Below are positions 3,001 through 64,000 of a DNA stretch of 64,000 bases, piece by piece (position 1 is the first letter of the stretch; every line of letters begins with the position of its first letter). Source of the DNA: Minisyncoccota bacterium (lineage in GTDB: Bacteria; Patescibacteriota; Minisyncoccia; Phycocordibacterales; SBAW01); NCBI GenBank assembly GCA_035546615.1, contig DASZWM010000007.1:1451-65450 (forward strand). The letters run 5' to 3'. Position numbers and translations under genes: made by a program. The notes below the pieces were generated by a model, which had not been told where the DNA came from, did not search any database, and was given only the letters and a program-made list of their open reading frames with translations.

Positions 3001-6000
3001 ATGTCGACGGAAGTGACGGAGCCGTTGTAGATGGAGCCCACGTACAGGTACTTGCCCTGCACCGCGACCGAAGACCCCGAGCCGATAGGCGTGCCGGGGG
3101 ACGAGTACTGGCCCACGATAACGGGCGCCGCCGGGTTGGCGATGTCGACGATGTTGACCATGCCGGTGTCGAGGTTCGGCGCGTAGAGGTAGCGGCCGGA
3201 GAGCGCGAGCGAAATAGGATGGCCCGCGCCGGAGAGCGTGGAAACGAGGGTCGGTACCGCCGGGTTGGAGACGTCGATGATAACGAGACCCGCGGACGCG
3301 TCGCCGACGTACGCGTACTTGCCGGAGACTACGATGCTCTGCGCTTGGGTGGTGCCCGTGTAGGAGCCGACGAGCTTGGGGTTGCCCGGCTGGGTGATGT
3401 CGAGGATGCGCACGTTTCCGGCGGCAACGTAGGAGTAATGGCCGGAAGTGTTGATGCCGTATGAAGTCCCGCCGACTAAGGTCGAGGTCGCCAGGGTCGG
3501 CGTGCCGCTTGCCACCTGGAGTATATTGCCGCCCGCGACGGTGAGCTTCTGGGAAGGCGACGTGGTGCCGAAGCCGGCGAGACCGCCGAAGGACGCGATG
3601 CCCGAGTTGTAGAAGCCGGTCGTGGTGGCGTTGTCGATGGTCGCGCCTCCGACCACTTCGAGCTTGGAGAGCGTCGAGGTCGAGGTAAAGCCGATGAGCA
3701 CCTGGTCGGTCGCGGTCGTCAGGCGGATGCCCGAGCCGTTGAAGTGGGTCCAGTTGACGTCCGAGCCGGACGCGCCCGCGTCGGTGCCGCACTGGAATTG
3801 TCCGGTCGCGGAGTTCCATAGGAGCTTGTCGACCGAGCCGGAGCAGGAAGAGAGGTTGGCGCCGGTTATCCTGCCGTTTATGTACAGGTTCGTCGTGGTC
3901 GAAGTGCCGCTCGTAATGACATCGCCCGGGAAGGTATACACGCTCGAGGAATTGCCGCCGAAGGTTCCCGCCTGCGTGGTGATGACGCCGGTGGATGAGG
4001 TGTACGAGATGACCGACTGGCCCGAGAGGCTGGTCGAGGAGATCTTGTTGTTGAAGACGCTCCAGTCGGTATTTGTCAGGAAGCCCGGCTGGGAAGCGTT
4101 GGCCTTTTGAGCGCCGGCGTAGTCGATGGAGATAAGGCCGGCGCCGTTATCGTTGAAGTCGGACGAAGCGAAGGATGCGGCGCCCTTAGTGCTGCCGTCT
4201 GCCTTCGCGTCCTGAATGGAGAACGTGCCGGAGCTTGGGTTGTAGAACAGCGGCGCGGTGGCGTTGAGCGAGCCGGTCGTAACGAGGCCGAGGCTCGAGG
4301 TCGAGGTAAGCGTGTACGTACCATTGCTGTTGCCCACCAAAAGGTTTCCGTAGCTCGGAGGGGTCGAGAGTCCCGTGCCGCCGTAGATGACCGAGAGCGT
4401 CGACGTTGCCGACACGGCGCCGTTAATGGCCTGCAGGGGTCCGGTGATGTTGGAGATGGTTACGCCGCCGTTGAATGTGTTGCTGTTCGTAAACGTATTG
4501 CTGGAGTAGGTCTTCGGAATCGTGCTTGATGCGTCGACGAAATGGATAGCCGACGTGGTTGAGAAGAAATTGTTCTGCGTCTTCCAGTAGTCGGCCGAAC
4601 TGGTCGAGAAGCCGACGAGCGTCTGCTGGGAGAGGAAGTAAAGGGCTGATGTCGTGGAGAACGCCTGACCCTGATTGACAGAGAGGAAATATGAAGCAGA
4701 AGTCGTGGAGAAGAAATTATTCTGCGTCTTCCAGTAATCGGCCGAGGTGGTGGAGAACGAGTTCGCGAGGTAGTACGAGCCTTCCTGGCCGTCCAGCGTG
4801 CCCGTCCAGTCGCCCGCGCGGTCGAGCGTCAATGCGCCGCCGACATTCAGGAGGCCGGAGCCGGTGAGGTCGGTGAAGTACTCGGAGTTGAGACCCAGTA
4901 TCGCGGAGTACAGCGAGGTAGAGGTCGCGTTGGTGGTGGTGCCGAAGGTAACGGTGAGAGCGGAAATGGTCGACGACGAGTATGCGGTGAGGCCTGCGCC
5001 GAACTGCTGCAAGGCGGCCCAGGTATTCGAGTTCGAGAGGTTAAGGCCCCAATCGCTTATCCCCGCGCTGCCGTCATAGCTTGAGCCGGCGAGCGTCGCG
5101 TTGTGGGAAAGCGCGCTGAGGCTGGTGCCGAGCTGCTTGCCGCTGATGGTCGAGTTAGTAAGTCCCGCGTTATCGAGCGTGCCGGAAAGCGTAGGGGCGA
5201 ACGTGAATGCGCCGCCCGTGTTCGTTATCCTGATGCCGAGAGTCTGCCCGTTCTGCGTGAGCGTCGAGGTGGAAAGCGTAAGCGCGCCCGTCTGCGCCGT
5301 GCCGCCGCCGGTCTGCGAAAGCGACAGGACGCCGGTGTTTGAGATGACGCCCGTTGCGGGAACATAGCTGATGCCCGTACCCGCCGAGAGAGAAGTGGAG
5401 CCGAGCAGGCCCAGTGTGTTCGTGGCGGAGAGCGCGTAGCCGCCGGTGCCGTTCCCTACCAGAATGTTTCCGTACGACGGCGCTGCGGTCAGCCCCGTGC
5501 CTCCGTACAGGACGCCGACGGAAGAGGTTGCGGAAACTACGCCATTGATCGCCTGGAGCGGGCCGGTGAGGTTGGAGATAGTTACGCCGCCGTTGAAGGT
5601 ATTGGAATTCGTGAACGTGTTGGCGGTGTAGGTCTTCGGGATGGTCGTGGAAGACGTAACGAACCACATAGCGGAAGTGGTGGAGAAGAAGTTATTCTGC
5701 GTCTTCCAATAGTCTGCAGAGGTAGTCGAGAACGCAAGATTCTGGTTATTTGCTAGGAAGTAGAGGGCGGAGGTGGTGCTGAAGGCATTGCCCTGGTTCT
5801 GCGAGAGGAAGTATGCGGCGCTGGTGGTCGAGAAGAAATAGCCCTTGTCGAAGAGGCCGAGGGTGGAGGTGGAAAGGCGGCTGTTGAAGGAATTCCAGTC
5901 CGTGCTTGAGAGATAGCCGTCGGTCGAGCCGCCGGACTGGCTGATAGTGAAAATACCGGTCGAAGAGTTATAGGCGAGCGGCGCAAGTGCCGAGAGGCTG

Positions 6001-9000
6001 GCCGGGGTAAGGAAGCCGAGGCTGGATGTCGGCGCAAGGTCGTAGCCGCCTGCGCTGTTGCCCAGGAGCACCTGGCCGTAGGCCGGAGCGAGCGTGAGGC
6101 CGGTGCCGCCGTACACGACACCGATGCTCGTAGTTGCCGACACGAGGCCGTTAATAGCCTGCAGCGGCCCGGTGAGATTGGAAACGTACAGCGAGTCGAT
6201 GGTTGCGAGCGTTGTCGACGAAGTAAGGACGCGCGTGCTGGTGGCGAAGAAGCTGCTTGAGGTCGCGTTGGTAAACTTTGCCGTTGAGGGGGTCGTGGCG
6301 CCGATAGGCGTGCTGTTTATCGTGCCGTTCGAAATAGTGAGGTTGTCGGCTACGTACGCGTCGGCTACGATGCTGCCGTGCCAAACGCCGGTCGAGACGG
6401 TTCCGACGTTGGAGGAGCCGAGCACCGTCAGCGTGGTGAAGACCGCGCCCGGCGCGTTGAGCGTCGTGCCGTCGAAGGTGAAGGTATTGTCCCCGACGAC
6501 CGCGTCTTCCGCCTGGTTGGTGAAGAATATCTGTCCTGCAACGTACGTATCCGGCGCATCAGTGAGCCCGAGGAACGTGGTTGAGCCGCCTCCGCCGCCG
6601 GTGCCGCAGTCGCTGCCGGTGCCCGACACCACGCCCGCCGCGTTGACGCGCAAGCACTGCGTCGTACCGGTAATGGAGCCGAGCGTAAGTCCGCCCCCGA
6701 GCGTGAGCGCGCCGGTCGATGAGAACGTCGAGGTCGCCGTCGCGCCGAAGGAGGCCGACTGGTAGACCGAGAGCTTCGACGTGGAAGCCGCGTTGAACTG
6801 CTGGAGCTGGGACCAGGCGTTTGCGGTAGTGGTGCCGAAGGCGAGGCTGAACTGTCCGGTGGTCTGGTTGTACTGGACCGGGTACGAACCGGAGATGCTG
6901 GTGGTGCCGAGCTTGCCGTTGAAAAGGGTCCAATCGCTCGAGGAAAGATATCCGTTCGTTGAGCCGTTAGCCTGCGCGATGGAGAACACGCCGGTGTTCC
7001 CGTCGTACGAAAGCGGCGCGAGCGCGGAAAGCGACGATGTGGAGAGCAGGCCGTTGGCGGCGGCAAAGTAGCTTGCGGAAGTCGTGGAGAAGAAATTGCT
7101 GACCGACTTCCAGTACTCCGCGGAGGTGGTGCTGAAGGCATTGCCCTGGTTCTGCGAGAGGAAATACGCGGCCGAAGTTGTCGAGAACGCGTTGCCCTGG
7201 TTCTGGGCGAGGAAGTATGCGACGCTGGTGGTTGAGAAGAAATTATTCTGCGTCTTCCAGTAGTCAGTCGAGGTGGTCGAGAAGAAATTGCTGACAGACT
7301 TCCAGTACTCAGCGGATGTCGTGGAGAAGCCGGTCGAGGTGCCGCCGAACATGATGCCGAGGCTGGAGGTCGAGACGAGGTCGTAGCCGCCGGTTGCGTT
7401 TCCGACAAGCACCTGGCCGTAGGCCGGCGCGGTCGTCGTGCCGGTGCCGCCGTTTGCAACGCCGAGCGTGCCGCCGAGCACCAAAGTACCCGAGGACGTG
7501 ATGGGGCCGCCCGTGAAGGAGAGCCCGGTGGTGCCGCCGTTGGCTGCAACCGATGTTACCGAGCCGCCGCCCGAGCCGCCCAGGCCCAGAGTCGAGGTTG
7601 AGGTTACAGCCCACTTCACGCCGTCCCACACCAGCACGTCGCCGAACGCGCCGCCGCCGATGTGCGGCACCGTTGAGGAAGCGGAGATGTACGCGCCGAC
7701 AGCATAGTTGCTGGAAGTGGTGGAGAAGAAGTCGCGAGCCGTCTTCCAGTAGTCGGCGGAGGTGGTGGAAAATCCGCTAAGGCTCTGAAGCGAGAGGAAG
7801 TATGCCGCTGAGGTTGTAGAAAATGCCTGGCCCTGATTTTGGCTGAGGAAGTACGCGGCGGAGCTGGTCGAGAAGAAGTAGCCCTTGCCGATGGAGTCGA
7901 GATACGCCTGCGCGTTCTGCGGCGTGAAGTACAGGTTGGTGGCGCCTTCGTCGAGGCCGTCGGTCGTGGTCGCGTACCACGCGGAGAGCGACAGCTTCGA
8001 GTCAAGCGCGTTCTGGAGATCGGTTTGGTTGGAAAGCGTGCCGACGATATTGCCCCACGACGGATTGCCGCCCGCGGCGATGCCGAGCGTCGAGGTGGAA
8101 ACCAGGTCGTAGCCGCCCATGGAATTGCCGAGAAGGAGCTGGCCGTAGGTCGGGGCAGTGGAAGTGCCGGTGCCGCCGTTTATCGCATTGAGCACGCCGG
8201 AGAGCGTGAACGTGCCGGTCGACGTGATAGGCCCGCCGAGGAAGGAGAGGCCGGTCGTGCCGCCGCTTGCGTCAACCGACGTTACCGAGCCGTTCCCGCC
8301 GCCCGAATTGCCGCCGCCGTTGTGGCTGTGCGAAGGGTTCGGCGAAAGCGCCGCGGCCTCTATTTTCGGGAGAAGGAAATTCTGCAGCGCGAGCAGGCGG
8401 AGGTTGAGTATGTCTTCGGTGACGCCGGAACCCTGCACCAGACGCTCGGTAACCGGATAGGTGTTGTAGACCGGGTACGAGTTCTGGACGATCGTCGTGG
8501 TCGCGGTGCCTGCGGCGACCGGAGCAGACGGGCCGTACGCCGGCGAGGTCTGCGTGCCCGCCGCATACTGCGCGGGAACGCGCGGGCCGAAGAGGAACGA
8601 AAATACCTGCGAGAAGACATCGGACGCGACAGACGGCGATGACTTCGCCGGAAGGGAGAATCCGAACTGGAGCGGATGCGCCCCGAAGAACGGCGACTCC
8701 ACCTGCGCGAGCGACGCCGCAAGCGTGGTCTGGTTCTGCATCGCGACCTCGCGCTGGTGCATCGCGCCGGCGTACGCTACGGCGCCGAAGAGCAGCATGC
8801 CCCCCAGCGCCATCACCGCGTTGCGCGCCAGAAGCGAAGAGAAGCGCGAGGCGACGCCGTTCGCGGAAGGAACGGCGTCGGCCTCAACCGCCTTCTTCGC
8901 AGGCAGGCCGTTTGCCTTGCGGTACGTCTCGTTCTCAAGCTTGCGCTCCTTCGCTAACGCAGACGCGCGCTCAAGCTTTGCCTGAGCGCGCGCCGCCTCG

Positions 9001-59672: not shown

Positions 59673-61001
59673 TTATGTAACCTTCTCTGCGGCTTTATTG
59701 AACTGATCCCCGCGGTCATACTCGTTCTTGAACATGCCGAACGAGGCGAAAGCAGGGCTCATAAGCACAATGTCGCCATCCTCCGCGCCCTCTATGGCAA
59801 AGCCAACTGCTTCAGCCATAGTTCCATATATAGGACTGCCTGGTAACTCGCTTTTTACCCTCTCCGTACCGGTCCCCGCGAGCAGTAATACTTTCTTGCA
59901 GTACTTCGGGATCTCCGCAAGGAGCCCTTTCATTTCAAGGCCCTTATCCGCGCCGCCCATGATAAGCACGATGTTCTTTTTTGATTCATCTCCCAGCGCA
60001 TACAGGGCGGCAATAGTAGCCTCCGGTACCGTTGCCGTCGTGTCGTTGTAGATCTTCACTCCTTTTATTTCCCGCAGGAACTGAAGCCGCCCCGGAACCC
60101 CGTCGAACGACTCAATCGCCTTCTGTATAACATTCTCTTCAACTCCAAGCGCGCGGACAGCTGCGGCAGCAAGAGCCGCGTCATAGCGATTATGCTCGCC
60201 GGGAATCTTCAAACGCCATTCGGCGGGGATATCTTGCGTCCGCGCAATAACGGTACGAGCAAGGATCTGATCCTTAAACCCGTATTTTTTTGCATCCGGC
60301 ATTACTTGCTCGCCGAGAATAAGCACATCCTCCGGCTTTTGGAACAAAAAGATATTCGCCTTATCGGCGAAGTAGGCCGCCATATCGTTCTTGTAATAGT
60401 TCATATGGTCGGGCATGAAGGTGGTAAATACCGCCACATGGGGGCTTATCTTCGCCTCCCCGAGGCCCTGGCACTGCCACGAATCGAGTTCGAGTACGGC
60501 AGCGCTATCCGCTTGTACCTGCGGTAAAAGCGCGAGCGTCGAGACACCCTGCACGTTTCCGCCCAGAAGTACGCTCTTCCCTGCCTCCTTCAGGATATGG
60601 GCGATAAGATGCGTGGTTGTCGATTTACCGCGCGTGCCGGTAATGCCTACTGACGCGACACCCGAGAATTCCATAAAAAGGTCGGCGCTCATGCGCACGG
60701 GTACGCCGTTTTTCTTCGCCTCGGCGATAAACGGAGAATCGAGCGGCACGCCCGCCGCCTTGATAATAAGGTCGCGGTCTTTAAAATCTTCGAGACTGTG
60801 TCCGCCAAGGCGGAACGTTATGTTCGAAAACTGCTTCAGTTGCGCTAAAGAATCGGCAAGGTCCTCTTCTGATTTTAAATCGGTAACTACCAACTCCACC
60901 CCCTGTTCCGCTAGAAATCGCGCATCCCCCACCCCGCGGCCCAAAAGGCCGAGCCCCATGAGGGTTACCCGCTTGCCTTTGAAATAGTCTTTCCAATCCA
61001 T
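59673..61001 (-). CDS. murD: UDP-N-acetylmuramoylalanine--D-glutamate ligase
   Basis: MDWKDYFKGKRVTLMGLGLLGRG..GITGTRGKSTTTHLIAHIL. Confidence 0.93.
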   Translation of the reverse strand: MDWKDYFKGKRVTLMGLGLLGRGVGDARFLAEQGVELVVTDLKSEEDLADSLAQLKQFSNITFRLGGHSLEDFKDRDLIIKAAGVPLDSPFIAEAKKNGVPVRMSADLFMEFSGVASVGITGTRGKSTTTHLIAHILKEAGKSVLLGGNVQGVSTLALLPQVQADSAAVLELDSWQCQGLGEAKISPHVAVFTTFMPDHMNYYKNDMAAYFADKANIFLFQKPEDVLILGEQVMPDAKKYGFKDQILARTVIARTQDIPAEWRLKIPGEHNRYDAALAAAAVRALGVEENVIQKAIESFDGVPGRLQFLREIKGVKIYNDTTATVPEATIAALYALGDESKKNIVLIMGGADKGLEMKGLLAEIPKYCKKVLLLAGTGTERVKSELPGSPIYGTMAEAVGFAIEGAEDGDIVLMSPAFASFGMFKNEYDRGDQFNKAAEKVT

Positions 61002-61006
61002 ACTAT

Positions 61007-61093
61007 TGGTGCCCAGGAGAGGACTTGAACCTCCATTCCCTTGCGGGAACTACGACCTGAACGTAGCGCGTCTACCAATTTCGCCACCTGGGC
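61007..61093 (-). tRNA. tRNA-Leu (anticodon CAG), 87 nt with long variable arm and encoded CCA
   Basis: RC reads GCCCAGGTGGCGAAATTGGTAGACGCGCTACGTTCAGGTCGTAGTTCCCGCAAGGGAATGGAGGTTCAAGTCCTCTCCTGGGCACCA. Acceptor is 7 bp, anticodon loop TTCAGGT. Confidence 0.9.
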
Positions 61094-61745
61094 ATGACCT
61101 GATTATACGCAAGGAATTCCTGATCTTGAGGTACTTCCTGCGCAAGTGAGGCAGTGGTGTAGTGTAATACATGCCCTGTGCGAGCACAATCGCTTCTTTC
61201 TTCGCGTACCTCAGTTGTACGTACGACTTGCCCGTATACCCTCCGACCGAACCACGTATACGCAACAGTCGCGTTATCTTTGCGCGGAACCAATCGACGA
61301 AGATCGGGCTTGCCGAGGTAAATGATATGTAAAACCGATAACTGTTCTTAAAGACAGGATCGTAATAGGAATAACTGCATCCGTCCCCGTCGAAGTATCC
61401 TCGCGCAAAGTCCATAAAGTACACATCGGGCACCGCTACTGATTCAAGCGTTTTCGACTTTGCCGGCGTCAGGCCTATGCCCAGAAGGAACCGATACAAA
61501 AGCACATCGCCGAATTGGGTACAATACGCCATATCGCCGCTGCCCGAGTACTTTTTCGCGGTCTTTGTCTTGATACCCAGGCATTTTTTAAAAAGAGAGA
61601 TCTGTGCCTTGTCGGTCGAGGTCAGGCTGATATGCCGGCCGTCTTTTGATAAGCAGCCGTCGGCGGTTAGCAAGCCTACCGCATATGCAAAATCTGAAGA
61701 CCATCTGCGTTTTGCTTTGCCTACCGGCTTAGGACCCCTTTTCAT
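61050..61745 (-). CDS. LAGLIDADG-family homing endonuclease (two motifs, single-chain), free-standing. Its 3' end overlaps the 5' half of tRNA-Leu
   Basis: YAVGLLTADGCLS and FARGYFDGDGCSY. 231 aa. The last ~15 codons are encoded by tRNA sequence. Confidence 0.75.
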   Translation of the reverse strand: MKRGPKPVGKAKRRWSSDFAYAVGLLTADGCLSKDGRHISLTSTDKAQISLFKKCLGIKTKTAKKYSGSGDMAYCTQFGDVLLYRFLLGIGLTPAKSKTLESVAVPDVYFMDFARGYFDGDGCSYSYYDPVFKNSYRFYISFTSASPIFVDWFRAKITRLLRIRGSVGGYTGKSYVQLRYAKKEAIVLAQGMYYTTPLPHLRRKYLKIRNSLRIIRSCPGGEIGRRATFRS

Positions 61746-61964
61746 GTATACTCCCGCGAGTTCTTACTATACTGAAGCAATAATGTATACCATATCATTT
61801 TGCCAAAAATCGGGTATTTTTACAAAAAACATGGGGGAGCCGGCTGGGCTGCCGGACTCCCCCAATTCCGTCGCCCGGCCCCGGGCTACGGAAAAACTTT
61901 CTCGAATATCCACCTGAATGGCTTCGAGTAAAAACACTGTACAAGCAAAGCTTAGAAAATAAAA

Positions 61965-62003
61965 GATGTGGATAAAAAGGGGCCGGTCGTTTCCAACCGG
62001 CCC
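61965..62003 (-). terminator. Intrinsic terminator after the cold-shock gene
   Basis: gggccgg-tcgtttccaa-ccggccc followed on the minus strand by CUUUUUAUCC. Confidence 0.55.
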
Positions 62004-62043
62004 TCATCCCAGTGATCCGCCCGCGTGGCGCCGGCGTGTTCCT

Positions 62044-62655
62044 TCACGCACTGTCCAAGCGGACTTCCGCGGCCATAAGGCCCTTCGGACCGCTGCCGTA
62101 GCGCACAAGCACTGCCTGCCCGGTCTTGAGCTCGAGGAGCCCGAACCGGCGCAGCGTCTCCATGTGAACGAAGATGTCTCCGTCACCGCCGTCGCAGGTG
62201 AGAAAGCCGTAGCCGCGCACGCGGTTGAACCACTTCACCATTCCCCGCTTGGGGTCACCGACGTTCGAGATCTTGAAAGATCCCTGAATAACAGTAGAGC
62301 TGTCCATGCTGATAATGCGATGGGCGCTGAGACCCTTGTCGCGCTTCAGCACTTCAACGACGACCCGCGCGCCTTCGTAGGCGGTCTCGAAGCCGCAGCG
62401 CCGAAGGCACTCCAGGTGCAGCATCACGTCCGACAGGCCGTTATCAGACACGATAAAGCCGTAGCCCTTGCTTGGATTGAACCACTTTATGACGCCGGCG
62501 ATCTCAACGATACCCTCGAGTGGCGCGGCATCCGGCTCCTCCCGAGAGACAGGCGCCGGGTGCGTTCGCTCCCGCAGGGATTCCCCCGCCAGCGCTAGCG
62601 AACTGTGCGGACGCACGTCACGTTCCCGCTGGGCGCGGGCTGCATAAGCGACCAT
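62044..62655 (-). CDS. Cold-shock-domain protein with two tandem CSDs and an N-terminal ~50-aa extension
   Basis: [18 protein letters not shown] and [31 protein letters not shown]. Start ATG 62655 preceded by AAGGGAG. Confidence 0.85.
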
Positions 62656-62754
62656 GGCTACTACTCCCTTTTTTACAGAACAACCCCACCCGCCGTGAGG
62701 CGCTCTCACAATAGCATTATCAGAAAAAATATCTACAGGGCGCTTCGGCGCACA

Positions 62755-62786
62755 AAACCCGCCTCAAGGCGGGTTTTCGTGTCTTT
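62755..62786. terminator. Hairpin terminator (bidirectional-capable) just downstream of tRNA-Ile
   Basis: aaacccgcc-tcaa-ggcgggttt followed by tcgtgtcttt. Confidence 0.45.
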
Positions 62787-62926
62787 GGTGGTCACAAGTA
62801 TTTTTCCTGACGGAAAAATCTCGCGACCCCGGCTCGGCGCTTTTACCTTCGCTTCGCGAAACAAAAGTATGCCTGCGCCCCGCACAAACCACAAAATCTG
62901 CCGCAGGGCAGATTTTGAGTGTTTTG

Positions 62927-62999
62927 TGCGCGCTCTAGGGATCGAACCTAGGACCTTTCGAGTATCAGTCGAATGCTCTACCAACTGAGCTAAGCGCGC
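62927..62999 (-). tRNA. tRNA-Ile (anticodon GAT)
   Basis: RC reads GCGCGCTTAGCTCAGTTGGTAGAGCATTCGACTGATACTCGAAAGGTCCTAGGTTCGATCCCTAGAGCGCGCA. Cloverleaf is fully paired, anticodon loop CTGATAC. Confidence 0.92.
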
Positions 63000-63614
63000 A
63001 TGTGCACAGAGATACTAGCAAAAAACGGGCATATTTGCCATAGAAAGCAGAAACCTGGTCGCGCATGTGCGCGACCAGGCAATATTCAAACGAATGGGTG
63101 AGCACCTCCGCGGTGGTTACGGGAAAGTGAAAAGGGCCGAAAACATTTCGGGTTTGATCTTATTCTTGCGAAACATTCGCAACCTCCGCTTCTTCCGGTT
63201 GGAGTTAAGGGGATGTGAACAAAACCAAATACCCTCCTTTCTGCCCCCACCATACCACCGGGCGCGTAAAAGAAAAGGCATTTTGTGCACAGCAAAAGAC
63301 TCCCATGAGGGAGTCTTTTGCCTGAAACCCCGGCGCTTCGGTCGGGGTCCCGACTTTTTACGTCAGGATTGAATGTGATCACACCTTGCTAGCTCCAGAG
63401 AAATATTCTTTCTCTTGTTCCGTTTGTTACCTGTGTTCCGGCGCTGTACTCCAGCGTGTACTTGCAGGTATCGAGTAGCCGTACGTCAGCATGTCTTGCG
63501 GCATGCTCGGCCAATAACGAGTACGGTATAGGATCAGTACTATCATCCTCTATCTTTTGCAAAATAGAATCGCCATTACAGTTCTGTCCTCGTACGAGGG
63601 GCAGAACGTCAATC

Positions 63615-64000
63615 AATTTGAATCATTCCACGAGCAGCTTCCGCTACCCGTGCCTTGTTACGACTTACTCCCTGTCACCGAGCTTACCGTGAACCCACTT
63701 GCGTGGATCTTCGGGTGCTCCCGGCTCCCTTGAGTTGACGGGCGGTGAGTACAAGACTTGAGAACGTATTCACCGCGGTATAGCTGACCCGCGATTACTA
63801 GCGATTCCGGCTTCATGAGGTCGAGTTGCAGACCTCAATCCGAACTGAGCACTCGTTTCAAGATTTGCTCCGGGTTACCCCATTGCGTCTCGTTGTCGAG
63901 TGCATTGTATCATGCGTGCAGCCCAGGATATCAGAGGGACATGCTGATCTGGCGTCATCCTCACCTTCCTCCCCCGTGAGGGGGCAGTCTCGCCTGACAT
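63615..64000 (-). rRNA. rrs: 16S rRNA gene, 3' ~390 nt (E. coli ~1175 to 3' end). Continues beyond the window end
   Basis: RC contains GGAGGAAGGTG..., GAATCGCTAGTAATCGCGGGTCAGC, GTGAATACGTTC, CTTGTACTCACCGCCCGTC, AAGTCGTAACAAGG and helix 45 with GGAA loop (CACGGGUAGC-GGAA-GCUGCUCGUG). Confidence 0.9.

Follow-up and report, generated by a model that had tools for sequence, protein, structure and literature searches.

A family of free-standing LAGLIDADG endonuclease genes that may have overwritten tRNA-Leu genes in the candidate phyla radiation

Self-splicing introns and inteins are thought to be the hiding places in which homing endonucleases persist within essential genes. Here we describe a free-standing homing endonuclease gene (HEG) of the LAGLIDADG type in a 64,000-nucleotide stretch of a Minisyncoccota bacterium (contig DASZWM010000007.1, called the window in the following), where the HEG runs into a tRNA-Leu(CAG) gene on the same strand. 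The archaeal enzymes I-Tsp061I (PDB 2dch) and I-DmoI are like the window HEG in fold and size and in having two catalytic LAGLIDADG helices in a single chain. However, they are encoded by introns in rRNA genes, whereas the window HEG is free-standing beside a tRNA gene. The sequence identity is only about 22%, and the window HEG differs by an extra C-terminal helix that appears to be encoded by promoter DNA.

In the candidate phyla radiation (CPR), LAGLIDADG genes have been described in rRNA insertions and group I introns (PMC11270868). They share with the window HEG the host phylum, the superfamily and conserved RNA genes as targets. However, they sit inside the 16S and 23S genes and must be removed from the RNA, whereas in the tRNA-Leu-linked family the functional RNA is never interrupted and the element appears to bring its own tRNA copy. 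The rRNA insertion paper makes no mention of tRNA (PMC11270868) and, within a limited literature search, the arrangement of an HEG with tRNA-Leu was described neither there nor in PMC13011429.

The seg and mob genes of phage T4 are also free-standing beside conserved genes. Their open reading frames (ORFs) contain the promoters of essential genes, which favours retention of the HEG; segG holds the gene 32 promoters and SegB is located among tRNA genes (PMC2988022). The tRNA-Leu-linked HEGs are similar in that the promoter of an essential downstream gene lies inside the ORF, here at the sequence level. The T4 genes differ in that they are of the GIY-YIG or HNH type and reside in phage genomes, whereas the window HEG is a LAGLIDADG gene of cellular CPR contigs. 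In addition, the T4 genes have no duplicated or relic fragment of a target gene and are not fused into a tRNA.

Displacement of part of a native gene is known from fungal mitochondria, where ORFs in Allomyces atp6 and in Glomus atp6, atp9, cox2 and nad3 supply a new gene end in place of the native end, which is displaced (PMC3630166). As in the arrangement described below, these LAGLIDADG or GIY-YIG ORFs are accompanied by a displaced native relic, and the inserted and native copies differ in sequence (PMC3630166). The tRNA-Leu case would be the mirror image, since the 5' part and the promoter are replaced and not the 3' end. Whereas the fungal targets are mitochondrial protein genes, the target here would be a bacterial tRNA gene, the family is phylum-wide and the promoter lies inside the ORF.

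From the comparison of the window with its relatives, we propose that a free-standing HEG cassette has overwritten native tRNA-Leu genes while supplying a replacement tRNA, and that the window HEG belongs to a CPR-wide family that is independent of introns. We give this reading a probability of roughly 60%. The cassette probably consists of the HEG, a sigma70-type promoter in its last about 20 codons and a complete tRNA-Leu, and probably sits at the place of a former native tRNA-Leu with the same anticodon.

The endonuclease and its link to tRNA-Leu

The following features define the overlap of the two genes and the catalytic motifs.

61050 to 61745, minus strand: ORF of the LAGLIDADG HEG, 231 amino acids from an ATG start, a listed open reading frame
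61007 to 61093, minus strand: intact tRNA-Leu(CAG) with encoded CCA, found with ARAGORN and the Rfam tRNA model
61050 to 61093, minus strand: overlap of 44 nt between the ORF and tRNA-Leu(CAG), both features on the same strand
61656 to 61688, minus strand: LAGLIDADG motif 1 (FAYAVGLLTADG)
61380 to 61412, minus strand: LAGLIDADG motif 2 (DFARGYFDGDG)

A preliminary description of this locus had reported a free-standing two-motif LAGLIDADG gene that overlaps an intact tRNA-Leu(CAG) by 44 nt, a C-terminal tail dictated by the tRNA sequence, and a tRNA that no group I intron interrupts. All of this was borne out. The tRNA scored 52.9 bits with the Rfam tRNA model (gathering score 29), its gene is uninterrupted and no intron model matched it. 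Since the two genes share a strand and 44 nt of sequence, positions 1-44 of the tRNA encode residues 218-231, the final 14 residues of the HEG (CPGGEIGRRATFRS), together with the TAG stop.

The Pfam profile LAGLIDADG_3 (PF14528) matched the HEG protein with 32.5 bits (cut-off 22.5) and was present in all listed homologues, and 2dch was matched by sequence with an E-value of 3e-5. An AlphaFold2 model of the protein (predicted local distance difference test, pLDDT, 87; predicted template modelling score, pTM, 0.85) showed two alpha-beta-beta-alpha-beta-beta-alpha domains in a pseudo-symmetric fold. When the model was compared with the PDB by Foldseek, 2dch was the best match (E 1e-11, template modelling scores 0.64/0.71), and the top matches also included an intein endonuclease domain, I-AniI and I-DmoI. 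The motifs read GLLTADG (D29-G30) and GYFDGDG (D119-G120-D121-G122), each with an acidic residue followed by glycine, and D29, G30, D119, G120 and D121 are unchanged in 85 of 85 family members. As judged from sequence and predicted fold, the protein is a true two-motif single-chain LAGLIDADG enzyme with a predicted cleavage activity.

Foldseek also found WhiA (PDB 3hyi, E 9e-8) as a structural neighbour, which has the same two-domain LAGLIDADG scaffold (DUF199). WhiA is a domesticated LAGLIDADG transcription factor that has no catalytic residues and carries a C-terminal helix-turn-helix domain. This neighbour speaks for a different explanation, namely that the HEG is a domesticated LAGLIDADG protein, a vertically inherited host DNA-binding factor or nuclease at tRNA-Leu loci that is no longer mobile. 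It could, for example, regulate tRNA-Leu transcription by binding a D-arm-like motif. However, unlike in WhiA or maturases both catalytic aspartates are invariant in the HEG family. The family also has neither the helix-turn-helix domain nor another extra DNA-binding domain, and its presence is sporadic (2 of the 10 loci of the unbiased sample below). We consider domestication unlikely and return to it with the allele comparison.

Beyond the core, the model contains a single additional helix at the C-terminus, which is formed by residues 202-217 (LRRKYLKIRNSLRIIRS) and predicted with confidence (pLDDT 82-92). The tRNA-encoded tail that follows had a mean pLDDT of 49 for residues 221-230, with values below 50 for residues 224-231, and it is missing from the 216-residue homologues P0003, P0013 and P0058. 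We regard the 14-residue tail as incidental; it is predicted to be disordered and is probably dispensable. At the other end of the protein, the sequence KRGPKP.GK (residues 2-10, positions 61716-61742) is nearly invariant, with G4, K6, P7 and G9 found in at least 90% of the family; we take it to resemble an AT-hook or a minor-groove-binding arm.

The search for homologues returned 628 proteins at E<=1e-3. The best of them are 60-73% identical and, where the source was named, bear the labels Kaiserbacteria, Paceibacteria or Parcubacteria. Most have about 231 residues and share the tRNA-derived ending RGGEIG(K/R)HA(S/T)FRS, while some read across the whole tRNA and others, of 216 residues, stop 2-3 codons short of it. 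Among the species-level genomes of GTDB (one per species), more than 490 stretches encode relatives, nearly all of them from CPR/Patescibacteria. We fetched 80 of these loci, and in 76 the ORF ends at a same-strand tRNA-Leu. As a control, 80 distant relatives (25-39% identity) on viral contigs were analysed. None adjoined tRNA-Leu and one adjoined a tRNA-Trp, so that the adjacency to tRNA-Leu in the family is far above chance. The family contigs are cellular CPR contigs; the viral contigs hold only relatives of at most 39% identity. We conclude that the tRNA-Leu-linked HEGs of the CPR are a large and apparently undescribed family, for which the tRNA serves as a landmark, as had been suggested.

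The linked anticodon is CAG in the clade of the window and GAG in most others, with TAG in three loci and AAG in one. Across the family the stop codon falls between -39 and +114 relative to the tRNA start, and the GAG clade uses all three frames; in the close CAG clade the frame is always that of the window, with the stop at +44 or +47. Since the stop position varies while the abutment is kept, the overlap of ORF and tRNA is incidental.

A few loci depart from this arrangement. In L007 (806-1602), the tRNA-Leu(CAG) is on the opposite strand, convergent with the HEG and overlapping its 3' end, and the relic 5' half of a tRNA described below is still upstream. Distant paralogues lie directly upstream of tRNA-Phe(GAA) in L022 (4137-4853) and L051 (8244-8684), directly upstream of tRNA-Leu(TAA) in L048 (minus strand, about 7989-8588) and directly downstream of tRNA-Leu(TAA) in L047 (minus strand, about 5938-6531). 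These four loci also contain copies linked to tRNA-Leu(GAG). The tRNA-Trp case among the 80 viral loci is the sole one adjacent to a tRNA: in L280, a 427-kb viral (giant-phage) contig, a distant LAGLIDADG relative at 3001-3836 ends 3 nt into a same-strand tRNA-Trp, which is followed by a tRNA-Ala. A separate CAG-linked clade (L027, L029, L060 and L064) is found on contigs labelled Chloroflexi from groundwater metagenome-assembled genomes, one of 240 kb, which reflects either spread beyond the CPR or mis-binning.

Upstream tRNA-like fragments and a promoter within the reading frame

Two further regions of the window were recognised, one upstream of the HEG and one within its 3' end. The functions given are those suggested by the sequence.

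61772 to 61791, minus strand: relic 5' part of a tRNA-Leu(CAG), GGTATACATTATTGCTTCAG, read directly and by comparison with the family
61766 to 61771, minus strand: -10-like TATAGT directly after the relic, a presumed promoter element of the HEG
61751 to 61755, minus strand: Shine-Dalgarno-like GGGAG, 5 nt before the ATG, specific to the window
61095 to 61142, minus strand: candidate tRNA-Leu promoter within codons 202-217 (48 nt before the tRNA), from sequence and conservation
61125 to 61130, minus strand: -35 element CTCAAG of this promoter, followed by a 17-nt spacer
61102 to 61107, minus strand: -10 element TATAAT of this promoter, ending 8 nt before the tRNA 5' end

Across the family, the relic lies directly upstream of the HEG start and corresponds to positions of about 14-43 of tRNA-Leu, which run from the D-loop through the anticodon stem, its 3' strand included. 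In 10 loci of the CAG clade, the motif GGTATACGCTA-N5-6-YTCAG is found 12-26 nt before the start codon. The relic of the GAG clade reads TTGGTAGACGCTATCACCTTGAGGTGATA and that of a TAG locus TTGGCAAACGCTATATGGTTTAG. A loose regular expression for the relic matched 40 of 85 upstream regions, with 2.6 expected by chance. Of these matches, 37 carry the anticodon of the linked tRNA (CAG, GAG or TAG), and the remaining three are either whole tRNA genes located upstream or spurious hits, so among the relics adjacent to an HEG there was no mismatch. The copy in the window spans the 3' side of the D-arm, the 5' strand of the anticodon stem and the loop up to the anticodon CAG; with 20 nt it is the most degenerate of the recognised CAG-clade relics. 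A repeat search within the window found no duplicate of the tRNA 5' end. The relic was missed there because it is too diverged from the adjacent tRNA, and only the comparison with the family revealed it.

L014, L043, L048, L008 and L176 retain the whole 5' half with its acceptor strand. The relics of L008 and L176 are identical at 34 of 36 positions to the HEG-free tRNA-Leu(CAG) genes of other Paceibacteria (L015 and L032, of the native type GGGCGTG...GGTATACGCG...), whereas they share only 26-27 of 35 positions with their own neighbouring tRNA. The same was found for the GAG loci. When native HEG-free tRNA-Leu(GAG) genes were compared with occupied loci, they aligned over their full length, with 71-87% identity, to the tRNA that follows the HEG, and their positions of about 14-43 aligned to the upstream relic at 91-94%. 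By eye, the relic of L014 is identical at 37 of 38 positions to the native 5' half of L281/L285. A relic 3' half, consisting of the T-arm and acceptor strand, follows 4 nt past the functional tRNA in L006; a partial one is found just downstream of the functional tRNA in L140 and a degenerate one about 17 nt downstream of it in L002. The left breakpoint in the native tRNA-Leu is at about position 43/44. Taken together, the positions and identities of the relics and the presence of 3' halves suggest that a cassette of HEG, promoter and whole tRNA-Leu lies inside a disrupted native tRNA-Leu.

In L003 (about 5930-5960) and L006, the sequence upstream of the relic 5' half also contains a copy, in inverted orientation, of the last part of the relic 3' half (GTGGGTGCGGGGAGA). 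In L006 (about 225-245 and 1032-1058), it forms a perfect inverted repeat of 15 nt with the downstream relic 3' half.

The TATAGT of the window is separated from the ATG by a spacer or leader of 20 nt that contains the GGGAG. Most relatives have no such leader. A -10 box that matches at five or more of the six positions was seen in 34 of 81 family loci with its end precisely 6 nt from the start codon, the spacing of a leaderless mRNA. The D-arm of the relic was considered as a -35 element and rejected, as only some loci fit the 17-nt spacing.

The second promoter, that of the tRNA, lies inside the HEG. In relatives the same codons (..R-K-Y-L-K-I....S-L-R-I-I) contain TTGAAA or TTGAAG, a spacer of 17 nt and CATAAT. 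Other clades have TT(T)GAAA-17-TATAAT at the equivalent position, with the -10 box ending 8-24 nt before the tRNA, and across the clades this arrangement falls in codons of about 206-215. In the HEG-free alleles L096, L129 and L183, only the promoter segment precedes the tRNA, and in blastn comparisons the homology of all three to HEG-containing alleles begins 37-44 nt before the tRNA, where the -35 element starts. The native leader TATGATGGGGGAG of L285 is similar to the HEG 3' coding sequence TATAGTGGGGGAG of L018 and L040. The segment is thus shared between promoter and HEG codons, and the conserved C-terminal helix would be encoded by the tRNA promoter. We infer from this conservation that a sigma70-like promoter for tRNA-Leu resides within the last about 20 codons of the HEG. 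Given the distance of 8 nt between the -10 box and the tRNA, transcription is expected to begin 1-2 nt ahead of the mature 5' end. A consensus promoter scan of the window did not pick up the embedded promoter, because its -35 element CTCAAG is degenerate, and the number of matches in the scan was not above chance.

The sharp start of homology at the -35 edge in the HEG-free CAG alleles would also be expected if the HEG had simply inserted between genes, upstream of a tRNA-Leu promoter. The tRNA would then never have been disrupted, and the tRNA-like piece would be the HEG's own promoter or operator. The relics are indeed alike across loci, and a relic and HEG placed upstream of the leader are topologically equal to an HEG, leader and 5' part placed at tRNA position of about 43. 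However, relic and linked tRNA have the same anticodon in every case, across three isoacceptor classes, and the relic resembles the native HEG-free alleles of the same locus more closely than the linked tRNA does. The relic 3' halves downstream of the functional tRNA in L006, L140 and L002 also speak against an intergenic insertion. This explanation is therefore improbable in our view, about as much so as domestication.

The preliminary description had considered the HEG as the relic of a lost intron. A group I intron would once have interrupted tRNA-Leu, and after the loss of the ribozyme only the endonuclease gene would be left. The relic does end near the anticodon arm, where tRNA introns sit; many group I introns are known in CPR genomes, including in tRNA genes (PMC13011429), and the CPR rRNA insertions encode LAGLIDADG enzymes (PMC11270868). 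However, the Rfam model Intron_gpI (RF00028) gave no match over 60800-63700 of the window even at E<=1 and none in the 16 related loci L001-L016 at the gathering score, and the whole family is free-standing. In addition, the HEG is followed by a complete second tRNA copy and not by a 3' exon, and the breakpoint is after the anticodon stem (about 43/44) and outside the loop. The survey of tRNA introns in Patescibacteria found HNH and not LAGLIDADG HEGs, and none in tRNA-Leu (PMC13011429). The idea of a lost intron was accordingly given up; we regard it as very improbable and the weakest of the alternatives. What the preliminary description had missed is that the overlap is incidental, that a promoter lies inside the ORF, that a relic lies upstream and that the arrangement is a conserved trait of the family, present in some alleles and absent from others.

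Occupied and empty alleles

A comparison of alleles with and without the HEG had also been proposed, and both types were found at the same sites. A metagenome scan with a tRNA-Leu(CAG) pattern, which proved rather unspecific, gave 120 loci, of which about 110 were tRNA-Leu genes of non-CPR origin without an HEG; the scan yielded three informative alleles with the HEG and three without it. L183, where tRNA-Leu follows tRNA-Ile, is the empty form of L002. L096 and L129 are empty forms of L010, and L096 is 91% identical to L010 over promoter and tRNA. In the GAG clade, the gene upstream is that of ribosomal protein bL19 (rplS) in at least 25 loci, which allowed us to sample rplS loci regardless of the HEG. 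With homologues of the bL19 of L013 at 57-85% identity, 10 loci were obtained. The HEG was absent from eight of these rplS-tRNA-Leu(GAG) loci and present in two (L286 and L287), where it was accompanied by relic and tRNA. Seven of the HEG-free loci consist of rplS, a terminator, a promoter of the TTGAAA-17-TATGMT type and tRNA-Leu(GAG); in the eighth, L288, another gene lies between rplS and the tRNA. Presence or absence of the HEG is thus polymorphic at the same genomic sites among relatives, at CAG and at GAG loci.

Decayed or truncated HEG copies were found in L004, L028 and L055 and as the second copy in L051. In a neighbour-joining tree without support values, the CAG-linked HEGs arise at least three times within the GAG-linked diversity, which suggests at least three switches of the isoacceptor target.

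Several observations weigh against a mobile cassette, and some of them are shared by domestication. The identity of the HEGs correlates with that of the flanking proteins (r=0.54, species representatives only), the HEG is better conserved than its neighbours (52% against 43%), and near-identical HEGs in divergent genomes were not found among the species-level representatives. Because HEG identity tracks the flanks and near-identical copies are missing, inheritance looks largely vertical over the sampled species-level distances. Domestication would also fit the occupation of the orthologous rplS-tRNA-Leu(GAG) locus in many CPR lineages, the low number of decayed copies (about 4 of 85) and the upstream D-arm motif, which is kept even where the rest of the relic is lost. 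However, eight of the 10 rplS loci in the unbiased sample lack the HEG, as do close relatives at the CAG site, so that it is dispensable. There are several target-specific paralogues, sometimes two per locus, and the unit is flanked by the relic halves of a disrupted tRNA. These findings, together with the invariant aspartates, speak for the overwriting cassette.

Other points against the cassette concern the tRNAs. The three HEG-free CAG alleles carry a tRNA and promoter of the cassette type, so that they are likelier secondary losses than naive targets. The target site could not be derived from sequence comparison, and there was no clean immunity signature in the D-stem or the flanks of the variable arm. 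Over positions 8-45, the window tRNA does not differ from an HEG-free tRNA of L018, and a canonical D-arm is retained in several of the GAG tRNAs linked to an HEG. The tree that places the CAG-linked HEGs carries no support values. The relics also have limits. No more than 37 of 85 loci had a recognisable 5' half and no more than three of 14 CAG-clade loci a 3' half, and the relic of the window itself is short and degenerate. The Infernal tRNA model did not match the best relics (L176 and L014), since half-tRNAs do not score; the relic claim thus rests on sequence identity and positional statistics.

In one Paceibacteria subclade, the variable arm of the native alleles is flanked by C..A and their D-stem is canonical, and the HEG-linked and some empty alleles have T..G and altered D-stems, in a sample that is small and confounded by phylogeny.

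Neighbouring genes, proposed mechanism and implications

Downstream of the tRNA, the window contains the genes murD and murC.

60999 to 61001, minus strand: start codon of murD, 5 nt past the 3' (CCA) end of tRNA-Leu

The murD start has no Shine-Dalgarno sequence after tRNA-Leu, and no terminator-like site was found between the two genes. Because of the missing terminator, murD probably depends on the promoter embedded in the HEG and is probably co-transcribed with tRNA-Leu from it. The murD-murC genes may be on one transcript with tRNA-Leu and be freed by tRNA processing. The proximity of murD/murC to the HEG/tRNA pair is not conserved in relatives and could therefore not be used to locate empty sites.

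On the other side of the HEG, the 3' end of the 16S rRNA gene (63616-64000, minus strand) is followed by a spacer of 616 nt and tRNA-Ile(GAT) at 62926-62999. Neither a tRNA-Ala nor a 23S rRNA gene was found after it in the other 63 kb of the window, so that the rRNA genes appear unlinked. The region between tRNA-Ile and the HEG holds an ORF (62044-62709, minus strand) that encodes two cold-shock domains, and a gene 62% identical to it is at the same place in L008. The G+C content of this ORF is 0.59-0.63, compared with about 0.50 nearby. The cold-shock ORF is followed by a terminator-like hairpin (61980-62003) and a second GC-rich hairpin with a T-run (61823-61863).

The sequences establish the architecture and how well it is conserved, the polymorphism for presence or absence of the HEG, and catalytic motifs that are intact. 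Cleavage and its target site, immunity of the linked tRNA, use of the promoters and current mobility are inferred. The enzyme would cut HEG-free tRNA-Leu alleles near the junction of anticodon stem and variable arm. Repair from the cassette-bearing allele would copy in the HEG together with a functional and presumably resistant tRNA-Leu and its promoter. Since the replacement tRNA is copied in with the HEG, the host would never lose the tRNA. By such double-strand-break repair the cassette may spread, or may once have spread. Transcription of the HEG would depend on the -10 box that arose directly behind the relic and would in most cases give a leaderless mRNA, and the stump of the native tRNA may act there as part of the promoter or as an operator. 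A possible parallel to a relic overlapping the HEG promoter is I-TevI, which represses its own promoter via an operator resembling its homing site. At its 3' end, the ORF would run on through the tRNA promoter to the first stop, which in the CAG clade falls inside the tRNA, so that the 44-nt overlap and the 14-residue tail need have no function of their own. Since the promoter of an essential tRNA lies inside the ORF, deletions of the HEG 3' end would be selected against.

Put together, this would be an undescribed strategy that needs no intron: the cassette overwrites a CPR tRNA-Leu with a cleavage-resistant one, locks the tRNA promoter in its ORF and reuses the stump as promoter or operator of the HEG. 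We propose this full scheme tentatively and put its chances at somewhat less than even. If it is true, part of the unusual diversity of D-arms and variable arms in CPR tRNA-Leu would have been left behind by an arms race against this HEG family.

A large bacterial family thus appears to carry a spare copy of the gene that it destroys, an arrangement known mainly from a few mitochondrial protein genes of fungi. If confirmed, this would explain hundreds of annotations as 'hypothetical' or 'intein-containing' beside tRNA-Leu in CPR genomes, and annotators should treat an overlap of ORF and tRNA with an upstream tRNA-like fragment as real and not as an error. For studies of specificity, the family would also offer natural LAGLIDADG enzymes whose targets are similar, though not the same, tRNA genes (Leu-CAG, -GAG, -TAG and -TAA, and Phe). 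For the biology of the CPR, it would mean that selfish DNA can replace tRNA genes together with their promoters wholesale in reduced genomes.

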